Below are positions 18,965 to 63,866 of a DNA stretch of 64,000 nt, piece after piece; positions within the stretch are counted from its first letter, which is position 1; each line of letters opens with the position of its first letter. A program made the translations under genes and the position numbers. Source of the stretch: Acidaminococcus sp. (GTDB lineage Bacteria > Bacillota > Negativicutes > Acidaminococcales > Acidaminococcaceae); NCBI GenBank assembly GCA_022482815.1, contig JAKVOM010000001.1:1630946-1694945 (forward strand). The letters are read 5' to 3'. The notes beneath the pieces are model-generated. The model was not told the DNA's origin. It made no database searches and was given only the letters and a program-made list of their open reading frames with translations.

Positions 18965-19090
18965 CGCAGGTCGCTGGCCGCGTGTCGCCGGTCGCGCTGT
19001 AAGCAGCCAAGATGCCGTAGGCACTTGGCGGAAATGAATTCCGCGGGCCGCTGGCCGCCATGGGAAGAGGTAAACCGCGCGGTGGTTTGC
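18965..19090 (+). repeat. (nnGTCGC)n heptamer plus palindrome element (two sub-units)
   Basis: GGTCGCT GGCCGCG TGTCGCC GGTCGCG then CTGTAAG and a hairpin; begins 5 nt after the upstream stop codon. Confidence 0.8.
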
Positions 19091-19249
19091 GGTAAAAAAC
19101 AAATGGAACATCGGACTCCTGTGGGGGTCCGATGTTTTCGTATACAGTGCAAAACTGGAAAACCCAGAATTTTAGACAACCAATATACTAAATTAACTTT
19201 TTCTGGATTTTCAATGCTTAATTTGGTAGTCTTGTCATGAAAGGGGAGC

Positions 19250-19675
19250 ATGGCAATGAAACGCAAGTACTTTACGGAAGAAGAAATAGAACTGCTGAAG
19301 AAAAATCCGTATACCTTCCATGTTAACAGAGGACAGATTTTTTTCACAGTCGAATTCAAAAAAGCTTTCTTGAAATTGTACGACTCCGGGGTACCAGCCG
19401 CCGTGGCCGTCCGTAAGCTCGGGTATGATCCTGATATCCTTGGAAAGGGCCGCATCAACAGCATTAAAAGAAATGTAAACGACCAGTTGACTCATGCCGG
19501 AGAGCTTCACGAAGGACCTCATAAAAAGATTTCCCTTCAGCAGTTGTCCGCTCAATCCTCATCGGCCGAAATTGCCCGCCTGAAGCAGGAAGTAGCTTAT
19601 CTCCGGGAAGAAGTAGAGTTTATGAAAAAAAGCCTTGCCCTTGCCAGAAAAGGTGCCAAAAAAAGAAAGCGATAA
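19250..19675 (+). CDS. HTH protein resembling IS3/IS150-family OrfA (orphan, no OrfB)
   Basis: FTEEEIELL..NPY, FT.EFK, LGYDPDILG..RI, and a C-terminal zipper EIARLKQEVAYLREEVEFMKK. Confidence 0.7.
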   Translation: MAMKRKYFTEEEIELLKKNPYTFHVNRGQIFFTVEFKKAFLKLYDSGVPAAVAVRKLGYDPDILGKGRINSIKRNVNDQLTHAGELHEGPHKKISLQQLSAQSSSAEIARLKQEVAYLREEVEFMKKSLALARKGAKKRKR

Positions 19676-19812
19676 GATCTCTTGAAAAATTTCCCTTGCT
19701 TCAATATAAACCCATTGAAGTTGTGCTGTGGAGGATAACCAACAAGTCAGCAAACAGATTGGTGGTTTGAAGGGTATAATCAAAAATCTGGTTATTAGCT
19801 CCAATCTATATT

Positions 19813-19883
19813 AAGAATCCGCCAAGGCAACTGCCTGCACGGGTGTGCTAACCACTCTTTCCACTAACCACTACCCACTTTTT
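19813..19883 (+). repeat. AAGAATCCGCC-core/CTAACCA heptamer element
   Basis: Same core as at 26651, 32339, 46924, 53963 and 63799. Confidence 0.8.
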
Positions 19884-19953
19884 GCTACAAGCCCTGTTGC
19901 CTGCCTTGTGCCCCAACCATCTGTCCGTACTAACGATTAATTATTGTTCCTAT

Positions 19954-19982
19954 TTGACAGTATACTACGAATAGAATATAAT
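19954..19982 (+). promoter_or_regulatory. Consensus promoter of typA
   Basis: TTGACA-17 bp-TATAAT. Confidence 0.8.
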
Positions 19983-20064
19983 AATGTGGTCGAAATTTCA
20001 GGTTACTTTGAGGATGCTTTTGACAAGCATCCTCTTGATTTATCTCAAGAGGGGATAGGCTTTT

Positions 20065-21900
20065 ATGATTAGAAACGATTTGCGTAACATTGCTATCATT
20101 GCCCACGTTGACCATGGTAAGACTACACTGGTTGACGCTATGCTGAAGCAGAGCCATGTCTTCCGTGCCAATGAAAAGGTACAGGAAAGAGTCATGGACT
20201 CCAATGATCAGGAAAGAGAACGCGGTATTACCATCCTGGCAAAAAACACGTCCGTCATGCATAATGGCACCAAAATCAACATCCTGGATACTCCGGGCCA
20301 TGCTGACTTTGGCGGCGAAGTAGAACGTGTGCTGAACATGGTTGATGGTGTTCTGCTCCTGGTTGATGCTTACGAAGGGCCTATGCCTCAGACCAAATAT
20401 GTACTGCGTAAAGCTTTGGAACATCATCTGAAGCCGATTGTAGTTATCAATAAAATTGACCGTCCTGATCAGAGAGTCGAAGAAGTCGTGGATGAAGTCC
20501 TTGACCTCTTTATCGAGCTGAACGCCAGTGATGATCAGCTGGACTTCCCGGTTGTTTACTGCTCTGCAAAGACCGGTGTAGCTAAGCTTTCCATGGATGA
20601 CGATAGTGATAACCTGGAACCGCTGTTCCAGACCATTCTGGATACGATTCCGGCACCTGATGTCGACGTCGATGCTCCGCTGCAGCTCCTTGTCAATACG
20701 CTGGACTATGACGATTATGTCGGCCGCATTGTTATCGGCCGTATCGTCCGCGGTACCATTCATAACGGCGAACAGATCTGCCTGATGCATGATGACAAGC
20801 GCACCAACGAAAAGATTGGGCGCCTGTACACCTATGAAGGCCTCAAGAGAGTCGAGACTCAGGAAGCTCAGGCCGGTGAAATCATCGCCTTGATCGGTCT
20901 GCAGGATGCAGAAATCGGTGATACCATTGCCGATGTGGAAAATCCTGAACAGCTCGCCGGCATCAAAGTCGATGAACCGACCCTGTCCATGACGTTCTCT
21001 GTCAACGACGGTCCTTTTGCCGGTCAGGAAGGCCACTTCATTACGAGCCGCCACATTCGTGAACGTCTGTACAAGGAAGTAGAAACCAACGTATCCATGA
21101 AAGTAGAAGATACGGATTCTCCTGATACCTTCAAGGTTTCCGGCCGTGGTGAACTGCACCTGTCCGTACTGATCGAAGCGATGAGAAGAGAAGGTTTCGA
21201 ACTGCAGGTTGGTAAACCGACCGTTATTATGCGCCGTGACAAGGACGGCAAGCTGCTCGAACCGATGGAAGCGCTGACCATCGATGTGCCGCAGGATTTC
21301 ATGGGCCCTGTGATGGAAGCCCTGGGTATCCGCAAGGCTGAACTGCAAAACATGACCGAAATGGCCGGTTATCTGAGAATGGAATTCATCATTCCGGCTC
21401 GTGGTCTGATCGGTTTCAGAAACCAGTTCCTGACCGATACTAAAGGCAACGGCATCATGAACCACGTATTTGCCGGCTGGGGCGCTTATAAGGGCGATAT
21501 CCCCGGTCGTACGAGAGGTTCCCTGGTTGCGTTCGAAGCCGGCGAAACGACGGCTTATGGTATTGATAAATGTCAGGCCAGAGGTACGATGTATGTCAGC
21601 CCGGGCGAACAAGTTTATGAAGGCCAGATTGTCGGCGAAAACAGCCGTGAAGATGATATGGACGTCAACCCCTGCAAGAAGAAGCATGTATCCAATATGC
21701 GTGCAGCTGGTTCCGATGAAGCCGTTCGTCTGATTCCGCCGCAGACCTTCTCTCTGGAAGGCGCTCTGGAACATATCAACGAAGATGAAACGGTTGAAGT
21801 CACTCCGAAGAGCATCCGTATGAGAAAGAAAGTCCTGTCCCGTCTGGATCGTGCCCGCGACAGAGCACGCAATGCCCGCGCTGTCAAAGCAGACGATTGA
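20065..21900 (+). CDS. typA: Translational GTPase TypA/BipA
   Basis: [52 protein letters not shown]. Confidence 0.97.
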
Positions 21901-62535: not shown

Positions 62536-62616
62536 AATGTACTGTTTACTTTGCATTTTCGTCACAAAAATGACTTTTGTAAATGTACAGTTTTGTGACC
62601 AGGTACTAATTTTTCT

Positions 62617-62645
62617 TTGACTCAATTTTGCCTCCATGATATGAT
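62617..62645 (+). promoter_or_regulatory. Promoter of the yabE-like gene
   Basis: TTGACT-17 bp-TATGAT with TGn. Confidence 0.6.
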
Positions 62646-62670
62646 ATATCCGTTTCAAGGAGGCGAGAAT

Positions 62671-63654
62671 TTGCATAATCCAAGTCGATGGAAGCGTCCT
62701 GAAAAGTGGATTGTCGTATGCTTGCTGCTCATAACCAGCTTGAACTTCCTCGGTTTTTCTACTGCACCGAAAAAAGTGAAGGTCAATGTGGATGGGCAGA
62801 CGATATCCCTGTCGACTCGGGCTGTTACAGTCAAAGGAGCCCTGGAAGACGCCGGTGTAGTTCTGAACGATGCTGACGGATATGACGTTGTCGGGGACGG
62901 AAAATATGAGGATGGTTCAACAATTGAAGTCATCCGTGCAATTCCGGTCAAGGTCTGGCAGAACGGCAGAACAACCGAGTATACCATTGGACGTAAGACG
63001 GTAAAAGAAGTATTGGATGCCGTAGGTGTAAATTACGAAGGGTATCATACATATCCTTCCCTGGATGCCCCGGTAGCAGCGGGCATGACGATCAATGTTG
63101 TTTCTCCTACGACAGAAATCACGAAGGAATCCGAAGCGGTTCCTTACACCACAGAACTCAGAAACAACGACAATCTGCCCCGCGGCAGACGTAACGTAGT
63201 TTCTCCCGGTAAAGACGGCGAAGCTGTGGTGACGTATCGAGTCATCAATATTGGCAGTCAGAAAGTCAGAAAAGAAATTGCCCGTGAGGTTGTTTCGAAC
63301 CCCGTTCCTGAAGTCGTTGAAGTAGGGACCGGAGCCAACCAAATGGTACAAACCTCCCGCGGCTATGTCCGTTATCGTTCTGCCATGACGGCAGAAGCTT
63401 CTGCATATACCCTGGCAGAAGGCAGCGGTACGGGACTGACTTCCACAGGGGTTGTTCCCTATCATGGAATCGTAGCAGTCGATCCTGATGTAATTCCGTA
63501 TGGCACGAGAATGTATATTCCCGGATACGGTTTTGCAGTAGCCGGTGACTGCGGCGGGGACATAAACGGTAATCGTATCGACCTTTATATGGATTCTTAT
63601 TCGGATGCCATTCAGTGGGGCCGACGAGATGTGACCGTTTACTTCTTAGAGTAA
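62671..63654 (+). CDS. yabE: YabE-like cell-wall protein (DUF348 repeats, G5 and 3D domains)
   Basis: GGAGG then TTG start; G5 domain; 3D motif AVDP.VIPYGT...A.DCGG.I.GNRIDL. Confidence 0.9.
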   Translation: MHNPSRWKRPEKWIVVCLLLITSLNFLGFSTAPKKVKVNVDGQTISLSTRAVTVKGALEDAGVVLNDADGYDVVGDGKYEDGSTIEVIRAIPVKVWQNGRTTEYTIGRKTVKEVLDAVGVNYEGYHTYPSLDAPVAAGMTINVVSPTTEITKESEAVPYTTELRNNDNLPRGRRNVVSPGKDGEAVVTYRVINIGSQKVRKEIAREVVSNPVPEVVEVGTGANQMVQTSRGYVRYRSAMTAEASAYTLAEGSGTGLTSTGVVPYHGIVAVDPDVIPYGTRMYIPGYGFAVAGDCGGDINGNRIDLYMDSYSDAIQWGRRDVTVYFLE

Positions 63655-63669
63655 TATTGGTAGAATGAT

Positions 63670-63705
63670 TAGGCAGGAACCGATTTGGTTCCTGCCTAGT
63701 TTGTT
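63670..63705 (+). terminator. Terminator after the yabE-like gene
   Basis: TAGGCAGGAACC/GGTTCCTGCCTA stem followed by T-rich sequence. Confidence 0.7.
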
Positions 63706-63710
63706 TATAA

Positions 63711-63866
63711 CGCAGGTCGCGGGTCGCCGCTGAAGGCAGCAAAATTGCTGAGTGGATGATTGACCACTCTGCCGAAGGCTTTGGTATCTCTCTGTATTAA
63801 GAATCCGCCAAAGCAGATGCCCGCACGAGTGTACTAACCCCTACGCACTAGCCACTACCCACTTTT
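63711..63866 (+). repeat. Composite heptamer element (GTCGC left part, AAGAATCC core, CTAACC/CCACT right part)
   Basis: Same modules and order as 26555-26718. Confidence 0.8.

Follow-up and report, generated by a model that had tools for sequence, protein, structure and literature searches.

The 64,000-nucleotide (nt) stretch of Acidaminococcus sp. DNA analyzed here (assembly GCA_022482815.1, contig JAKVOM010000001.1, positions 1,630,946 to 1,694,945), referred to as the window, includes the genes for RNase J, BipA, SepF, DnaE, a U32 peptidase, LuxS, PheS and PheT, and its intergenic spacers harbor short modules built on arrays of 7-nt units (heptamers). The left module is composed of a GGTCGCN array, a purine-rich motif and a hairpin, in that order; the right module spans ~85 nt and reads YTCAAGAATCCGCCAAG, ~8 variable nt (N8), GCCCGCACGRKTGTACTAAC and then a CCACTNN array. 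An original prediction, made from the window alone, proposed that the two modules are the ends of one mobile or recombinogenic cassette that is either empty or carries cargo. Here, the left module is described as the terminal inverted repeat of a compact selfish element that carries a PF05635 gene and resembles the intervening sequences (IVS) of 23S rRNA genes, and the right module as an independent dispersed repeat.

Recurrence of both modules in the proposed order and orientation was well above chance. The right-module core GCACRNKTGTRCTARY is present in 10 copies compared to 0.00 expected from dinucleotide shuffles, and 18 paired NNGYCGC heptamers were found compared to 0.82 expected. Using profiles built from the window copies, an nhmmer search located 11 left and 11 right modules, every one of which is intergenic. 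Outside the two bounded elements described below, the left modules are as follows (nhmmer start positions in brackets):

18965-19102 (+), two tandem solo left modules that begin 2 nt past the RNase J stop codon (18975 and 19040)
26554-26624 (+), solo left module with four GGTCGCN units and a hairpin, beginning at the dnaE stop codon (26562)
32261-32313 (+), solo left module downstream of luxS (32261)
44385-44497 (+), in a divergent spacer, left module of five units and a hairpin with a short CCACTNN tail behind it (44399)
45889-45963 (+), solo left module, 8 nt past the stop codon of a C1 peptidase gene (45901)
63710-63775 (+), solo left module with a variant hairpin (63710)

The right modules located by the same search are:

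907-956 (+), partial variant with a GCTAWCN array before it
12065-12147 (-), right module between convergent genes, without a left module
19797-19884 (+), right module (73 bits)
26635-26722 (+), right module
26796-26837 (+), partial right module, only the 3' part and array
32323-32405 (+), right module
34029-34082 (+), partial variant without AAGAATCCGCC, with a GCTAWCN array before it
46908-46991 (+), right module
53947-54031 (+), right module in a spacer without a left module
54107-54187 (+), diverged right module in a spacer without a left module
63784-63867 (+), right module

All module coordinates of the original prediction hold, with the right module at 34029-34082 being partial; its inventory had omitted the right modules without a left partner (907, 12065(-), 53947 and 54107) and a reversed GGTCGCN array at 33815-33828. 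Nearly adjacent left and right modules were confirmed at 26554-26722, 32261-32405 and 63710-63867, as was an abbreviated copy at 44385-44497, in which the left module is followed by the CCACTNN tail only. Among the 30 spacers of at least 40 nt, six hold both modules, two a left module only, three a right module only and one an array only, and 18 are empty; left precedes right in uniform order and orientation in 6 of the 12 module-bearing spacers. The modules are placed consistently just 3' of stop codons or just 5' of promoters, and some occupy the 3' untranslated region (UTR) between stop codon and terminator; a terminator hairpin (19107-19136) lies downstream of the tandem left modules at 18965-19102. 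An Rfam scan of the window returned no family over the modules, the matches being a T-box, DUF3800-I and three tRNAs only.

Heptamer periodicity pervades these spacers, as 21 arrays were detected at a lag of 7 nt compared to 1-3 at lags of 4, 5, 8, 10 and 11, and Tandem Repeats Finder also reported period-7 rows. At least four heptamer classes coexist in the window (GGTCGCN, CCACTNN, GCYAAAN and GCTAWCN), each unit consisting of a conserved core of ~5 nt and two variable positions, with within-unit variation concentrated at these 2 of 7 positions. Further arrays are:

26721-26764 (+), also 26841-26875 and 32395-32432, GCYAAAN heptamer arrays (periodicity scan)
37855-37901 (-), small hairpin and reversed GCTAWCN array after pheT, a 41-nt insertion or deletion (indel) relative to a sister strain

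Alignment of the 11 left copies showed a purine-rich motif that is CTG[TG]A[GA]G-like, with an exact GTAG in only four of them; GTAG itself is not strictly conserved. The hairpins of the left modules are imperfect palindromes with stems of 8-10 bp, the sequence of which varies between copies while pairing is maintained (GCAAACCG/CGGTTTGC, GCCAAGATGCC/GGCACTTGGC and GCAAAATTGC/GCAATTTTGC); this covariation was read straight from the alignment, in which hairpin length and sequence differ among copies. Left modules occur singly or in direct tandem and are inverted only at two bounded elements, with arms 0.7-0.85 kb apart. The first of these (nhmmer starts 22317, 22376 and 23018(-)) lies between sepF and dnaE, past a promoter -10 element, in the dnaE 5' UTR:

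22317-23076 (+), IVS-like element with a PF05635 four-helix-bundle gene (arms, fold and strain comparison)
22317-22437, left terminus, two tandem units, each a GGTCGCN array, purine-rich motif and hairpin
22589-22954 (+), gene for a 121-amino-acid (aa) four-helix-bundle protein of the 23S rRNA intervening-sequence protein family (Pfam PF05635, E 4e-36)
23018-23076, right terminus, inverted hairpin, CTACAG and four GCGACNN units

A left module and its inverse around the four-helix-bundle gene, as originally noticed, were confirmed at 22317-23076. The inverted arms (22319-22335 and 23044-23060) are 94% complementary and, when the whole 786-nt element was folded as RNA, both the minimum-energy and the centroid structure closed on these arms (z = -7.0). 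The closest solved relative of the 121-aa protein is XCC0516 (PDB 2GSC, E 1e-25), which was deposited with five chains. The exact protein sequence is confined to this species, and the possibility that its gene is a multicopy cargo was rejected because it is single-copy, with the nearest homologue being 56% identical. Overall, a compact selfish element that is IVS-like and carries a PF05635 gene has the left module as its terminal inverted repeat.

The 23S rRNA IVS that carry an S23p open reading frame (ORF) in Leptospira, Coxiella and Xanthomonas (PMC4990558) share with this element the PF05635 family including the 2GSC relative, a compact size (~0.4-0.8 kb), inverted repeats at the ends that are predicted to fold the whole element into a stem-loop, and tandem heptamers near the 5' end, whose copy number is reported to be strain-variable for Coxiella. 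They differ in that 23S rRNA IVS sit in helix 25 or 45, whereas the window element lies in the dnaE 5' UTR, and no rRNA was detected by Rfam within the window. In addition, the window element has termini built explicitly from arrays of 2-5 imperfect heptamers together with a hairpin, and such termini also recur alone many times in the genome. The Coxiella IVS possesses tandem GACAGAT heptamers of variable number and a 28-bp terminal stem and is excised by RNase III (PMC4990558). By analogy to 23S rRNA IVS, the inverted arrays would pair in the transcript to form a long stem with the insert looped out, and RNase III would cut this stem, so that insertion between operon genes would be tolerated. 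The four-helix-bundle protein, putatively pentameric, may bind the heptamer arrays.

A second element (nhmmer start 32971) is bounded by inverted termini like the first and is without a gene:

32966-33830 (+), gene-less element with a left module and a reversed degenerate left module as borders (sister-strain comparison)

Its ends are the left module at 32966-33024 and two GCGACNN units at 33815-33828, and its interior consists of other dispersed repeats. Homology with sister strains breaks at 32971 and returns at 33828, which coincides with both arrays. At 32966-32989, the left module contributes seven terminal codons and the stop codon to the upstream gene for a 167-aa protein, the C-terminus of which reads VVKKK* in sister strains and VVKKPQAAL* in the window. 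As for miniature inverted-repeat transposable elements (MITEs), this element is non-coding, has short inverted termini in common with a gene-bearing element and is present or absent between strains; unlike for MITEs, no transposase-bearing parent or target-site duplication was found, the termini are arrays, and most copies are solo termini. The clean, element-like borders in the window (22317-23076 and 32966-33830) are a left module and its inverse, rather than the left and right modules that had been thought to bound cargo.

The distribution of the modules was compared across relatives. The window DnaE shares 87% identity with its counterpart in an uncultured Acidaminococcus, which is the nearest species representative in GTDB, and 81% with that of A. 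intestini, and neither module profile produced a match in 35 dnaE-centered Acidaminococcaceae loci. The occurrence of lag-7 arrays followed the same division:

This species and its ~95% identical sister population, 19-26 arrays per 100 kb
Other Acidaminococcus and Acidaminococcaceae, 0 arrays and no modules in 164 kb of orthologous or neighboring DNA
Phascolarctobacterium, 2 arrays in 338 kb

In the closest relative (L012), gene order is collinear with the window and spacer lengths differ:

RNase J-BipA spacer, 1104 nt in the window, 386 nt in L012
SepF-DnaE spacer, 875 nt in the window, 151 nt in L012
DnaE-U32 peptidase spacer, 367 nt in the window, 61 nt in L012

For another relative (L001), the T-box leader of pheS (window 34141-34331) is closely similar by eye to L001:14700-14910, the neighboring 167-aa protein is 59% identical, and the spacer upstream is wholly different.

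The sister population (L049-51, L053 and L060-62) has 95-96% nucleotide identity to the window; its coding DNA is collinear, and the differences fall exactly in module DNA. Between sepF and dnaE, strains L060-62 possess just 48 nt with a solo three-unit GGTCGCN-like array and no hairpins or four-helix-bundle gene. At this position (L060:824-886), the solo array is followed by four GTTATNN units that reach the dnaE ribosome-binding site. In the spacer between luxS and the following gene (X), an array and right module are kept in both strains, with L049 having a reversed "double-hairpin" unit instead of the hairpin. In the X-pheS spacer of L049-51, an unrelated 378-nt repeat takes the place of window 32972-33827, while the distal part is kept, including the partial right module (34029-34082) that abuts the pheS T-box promoter. 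The sister strains thus retain the right module at X-pheS without the left module and "cargo", and left and right modules have therefore been gained or lost independently. After pheT, the 41-nt hairpin and reversed GCTAWCN array are found in the window only. Presence/absence variation at orthologous sites (SepF-dnaE, X-pheS and post-pheT) agrees with the original prediction insofar as it described mobile or recombinogenic DNA; a lack of such variation would have refuted the prediction, and the DNA proved to be dynamic instead. The elements are non-coding and lineage-specific. Both modules are real, strain-variable repeats confined to one Acidaminococcus lineage.

Independence of the right module was also evident within the genome. 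Its core of ~60 nt is strongly conserved in sequence (15 full copies), and no conserved RNA fold was obtained by RNAalifold with 8 and then 15 copies on both strands. Two other places of the 3.05-Mb genome of the same species (L063 and L064, 40 kb in total) yielded eight right-module matches, whereas nothing more of the left module than two solo GGTCGCN arrays was present there, and three window spacers likewise hold a right module without a left one. Left and right modules have no common inverted or direct terminal similarity. Exact-pattern scans for the right module gave no match in 185,579 GTDB species genomes, nor in JGI metagenome contigs, a collection that lacks samples including that of L049 and so carries little weight. 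The right module thus forms a dispersed repeat of its own, which in other parts of the genome usually lacks a left module, at odds with the claim that both modules are ends of one cassette. The bipartite-cassette model had been put forward on the understanding that the two do not distribute independently; because they do, it fails its own test.

The link between PF05635 genes and heptamer arrays extends to unrelated bacteria of other phyla and to viral contigs. In other bacteria, homologues of the four-helix-bundle protein occupy spacers between co-oriented operon genes:

L072, EutN / aldehyde dehydrogenase, PF05635 locus with inverted heptamer arrays
L073-76, rmlA / rmlB / rmlD, PF05635 loci with inverted heptamer arrays (two elements in L073)
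L077, Rhodanobacter fulvus, accB / accC, PF05635 locus with inverted heptamer arrays
L080, Terriglobia metagenome-assembled genome, MacB / MacB, PF05635 locus with inverted heptamer arrays

The heptamer differs from element to element (AGGCATC, GGGATTC, CGAGAGA, AGTTTGT, GTGGTTA and GGTCGCN). Across a survey of 32 PF05635 loci (25 of them non-redundant IMG/VR), with 640 random pseudo-genes from the same loci as controls, 21 loci compared to 5 controls were flanked by an inverted repeat with a score of 30 or more; with the additional requirement of at least 60% lag-7 periodicity, 18 loci and 1 control remained. Two heptamer classes of the window were among those recovered: GGTCGCN forms the left arm of the second L073 element (L073b), and AGTGGNN left arms are combined with CCACTNN right arms in L073a and L082. 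L083, L106 and L108 likewise have left arms with similar heptamers of the AGTGG type. Complete elements elsewhere are co-oriented with the host operon and have the left array at or just past the upstream stop codon and the right array at or just before the downstream start; the right array of Rhodanobacter terminates in ...GAATCCCGAATCCC, with the ATG immediately next.

Additional observations were made on these loci. In a single rml operon (L073:1300-3470 and L074:1350-3470), neighboring spacers each hold a PF05635 element, and the two elements use distinct heptamer classes. The first of them differs between otherwise similar contigs (105 aa vs. 125 aa), suggesting that elements turn over at a fixed site. 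In L082 (600-1060, IMG/VR), the PF05635 gene with AGTGGNN/CCACTNN arrays apparently lies within a longer reading frame that extends past it in both directions, rather than between genes.

The "cargo" originally assigned to the cassettes was of other origin. The supposed orphan helix-turn-helix (HTH) gene belongs to an insertion sequence (IS), related copies of which are intact in L063 and L064:

19141-19690 (+), decayed IS3-family IS, left end and orfA (HTH_Tnp_2, 19250-19675)
L063:9784-11559 and L064:9784-11480, intact IS3-family IS with orfA (HTH_Tnp_2, 137 aa) and orfB (rve, 345 aa)

The window copy lies between the RNase J terminator and the right module and has lost orfB (rve); its orfA matches Pfam PF20310 and is 70% identical to orfA of the intact copies, and the 110 nt upstream resemble the intact IS left end, as judged by eye only. 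An IS3-family IS has orfA and an rve orfB between terminal inverted repeats, with a 3-bp duplication; the L063/L064 paralogues have orfA, rve and the 3-bp duplications, and the window copy has only the left end and orfA. Capture of an orphan HTH gene was rejected, as the gene is an IS remnant with intact paralogues. In both other loci, the intact IS sits within a reversed right module, with insertion points 2 nt apart and 3-bp duplications of CTT and TTG. Because the flanking right-module halves differ between L063 and L064, these are two independent insertions; since the halves also rejoin into a complete right module, the right module was rejected as a component of the IS. These observations indicate that the IS3-family IS targets the right module site-specifically.

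The "double-hairpin mosaics" that had been listed as the remaining cargo are further dispersed repeat families, which are also found at 41930-42440, at 52869-53900 and in L063. Dispersed families occur at window 53242-53696, 33092-33750, 41930-42440 and 46012-46870 and at L063:3950-5060, and include a 205-nt unit (2.2 tandem copies), long GC-rich hairpins (CCTTCTTCAATGTCGCACAGCGACGTCGAAGAAGG) and the "double-hairpin" units. Such repeats break short-read assemblies, and the short-read contigs L011 and L052 terminate inside them at ~window 33270.

Other features of the window include a low-GC stretch (38431-42500, 0.41-0.43) directly past a tRNA-Asp/Gly/Trp cluster, containing a tandem repeat of 40 nt (38624-38737) along with five ORFs without a Pfam match, which may be an island integrated beside the tRNAs. 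At 42595-43417, a DUF3800-I RNA (Rfam RF02969, 85.7 bits) is located directly 5' of a DUF3800 protein gene. A gene for a 1399-aa autotransporter (48665-52864) contains six copies of an in-frame 12-nt repeat (GCGACGACCACA, 51251-51322) and other 12/24-nt repeats.

Following from these results, we lean towards reading the spacers as a lineage-specific bloom of modular heptamer-array repeats, in which an IVS-like PF05635 element terminates in the left module and the right module is independent, rather than as one bipartite cassette. The other left modules would be solo termini or non-autonomous derivatives of the IVS-like element. A left-then-right order would be expected because GGTCGCN is a left-arm class and CCACTNN a right-arm class in other bacteria; it could arise from polar placement, with the left array at the upstream stop and the right array at the downstream start, and a spacer that lost element interiors would be left with the two arrays in this order, the left-type one ahead of the right-type one. 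Several observations weigh against this reading. Only one PF05635 gene was found for more than 20 arrays in ~105 kb of this species, so for most arrays a link to a PF05635 element is putative. The GGTCGCN arrays on the left and CCACTNN arrays on the right are non-complementary, meaning that left-right pairs are not single intact elements and that an origin as remnants needs extra steps. The "empty" SepF-dnaE site of the sister strains retains its solo three-unit array and has a 5' UTR that is non-homologous to the window, so the element may have been either inserted or deleted there. The inverted arrays flanking 32966-33830 have just two units each, and target-site duplications were not found, with none visible at the borders of that element. 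Finally, the surveyed viral contigs were pulled via one conserved peptide and include some related loci.

The bipartite alternative, in which a non-autonomous cassette or capture platform (integron- or MITE-like, empty or filled and served by a trans-acting recombinase) has one module at either end, is in our view rather unlikely. The constant order and orientation in half of the module-bearing spacers would fit such a cassette, as would the luxS-X spacer, where a left-type array and a right module are kept in both strains around a differing interior, and the similar left-to-right spacing of the copies at 26554 and 32261. Against these points stand the right modules without left modules, which account for three window spacers and all eight L063/L064 matches; the X-pheS spacer of sister strains; the lack of common terminal similarity and of target-site duplications; cargoes consisting of a decayed IS and further dispersed repeat families; and the 20 window ORFs scanned, none of which matches a recombinase family. 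Likeness to integron cassettes is superficial and confined to variable content between recurring flanks: no integrase family was matched by the same 20 ORFs, the 3' ends of the cargo have no attC-like imperfect palindrome, and the flanks are independent of each other and enclose repeats and an IS remnant. A role as capture platform was thus not borne out, and of the co-occurring families that had been anticipated, the four-helix-bundle family proved to be connected to the modules, and no recombinase family was matched by the 20 window ORFs.

A system based on repetitive extragenic palindromic (REP) sequences is possible as a minority explanation, though unlikely, and the same applies with less probability still to a purely regulatory role. 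In the former, the GTAG-type hairpins would be REPs moved by a REP-associated tyrosine transposase (RAYT, a Y1 HUH transposase) encoded elsewhere, and the heptamer arrays and right module would be linker motifs as in bacterial interspersed mosaic elements (BIMEs). REPs have a conserved GTAG tetranucleotide 5' of the stem (PMC3333891), and REP/BIME sequences are targets of IS1397 and other ISs (PMC1525189, PMC3333891). There are similarities to REP/BIME/REPIN and RAYT systems (PMC3333891, PMC2817692, PMC3116915): the window left modules are short intergenic hairpins, imperfect palindromes of 20-40 nt as in REPs, with a purine-rich GTAG-like head on the 5' side and stems that vary with pairing kept; they occur in 3' UTRs between stop codon and terminator, in mosaic, strain-variable combinations, and an IS3-family IS targets the repeats as IS1397 does BIMEs (PMC1525189, PMC3333891). 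However, GTAG is not strict (exact in 4 of 11 copies), most units stand alone or form direct tandems unlike the inverted pairs typical of BIMEs and REPINs, and the IS target is the right module, which has no hairpin. No RAYT or other Y1 transposase was seen in ~105 kb (Pfam listings of L063/L064 and the 20 window ORFs scanned), the host belongs to the Negativicutes, and heptamer arrays and a non-palindromic ~85-nt module are integral to the window repeats; a REP system also leaves the 7-nt arrays and the PF05635 link unexplained. In the latter, arrays and right modules would be binding sites of a host RNA- or DNA-binding protein (acting in termination, mRNA stability or translation) that were spread by selection, an improbable explanation overall. 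Consistent placement just past stop codons or just before promoters, variation concentrated at 2 of 7 positions and the C-rich, G-poor sense strand of the right module and its CCACTNN array would be in line with this, and such a role has been proposed for TAACTGA repeats (PMC4679880). Yet close relatives with the same genes have no modules, gain and loss occur between ~95%-identical strains at housekeeping genes, one module remodels a protein C-terminus, and one right module lies between convergent genes.

Short tandemly repeated repetitive (STRR) sequences of cyanobacteria are tandem heptamer arrays. Tandem heptamer arrays are also formed by the TAACTGA repeats of Beggiatoaceae, Cyanobacteria and Bacteroidetes (PMC4679880). 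Like the window arrays, such repeats are intergenic arrays of 2-6 imperfect 7-nt units with a strong orientation bias, often end beside start codons and have a patchy phylogenetic distribution that suggests horizontal spread. In contrast, the window has several heptamer classes, joined to hairpins and a conserved core, and one class is the inverted terminus of a PF05635 element. The TAACTGA-repeat paper makes no mention of PF05635 genes (PMC4679880). We found no literature that links PF05635 genes generally to heptamer-array termini, and none on repeats in Acidaminococcus. A broader generalization, which we advance only tentatively and hold to be more doubtful than the reading of the window itself, is that PF05635 genes mark a widespread, undescribed class of compact selfish elements with inverted, element-specific heptamer-array termini and co-directional insertion into operons (sometimes inside genes or rRNA). 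Orphan arrays, such as those in this Acidaminococcus and possibly STRR and TAACTGA repeats, would then be solo termini or derivatives, and a homopentamer would recognize up to ~five heptamers.

To our knowledge, IVS elements and S23p/PF05635 proteins have been known for ~thirty years without an established function or mobility mechanism, and we know of no explanation so far for tandem heptamer arrays such as STRR and TAACTGA. Both questions become testable with the finding that a PF05635 element has one heptamer class as its inverted terminus, and Acidaminococcus provides numerous solo termini, one derivative without a gene, and sites that are filled or empty among ~95%-identical strains. A practical consequence for annotation is that PF05635 genes located within operons for cas, rml, acc or microcompartment functions probably represent selfish insertions and not functional partners of these operons.

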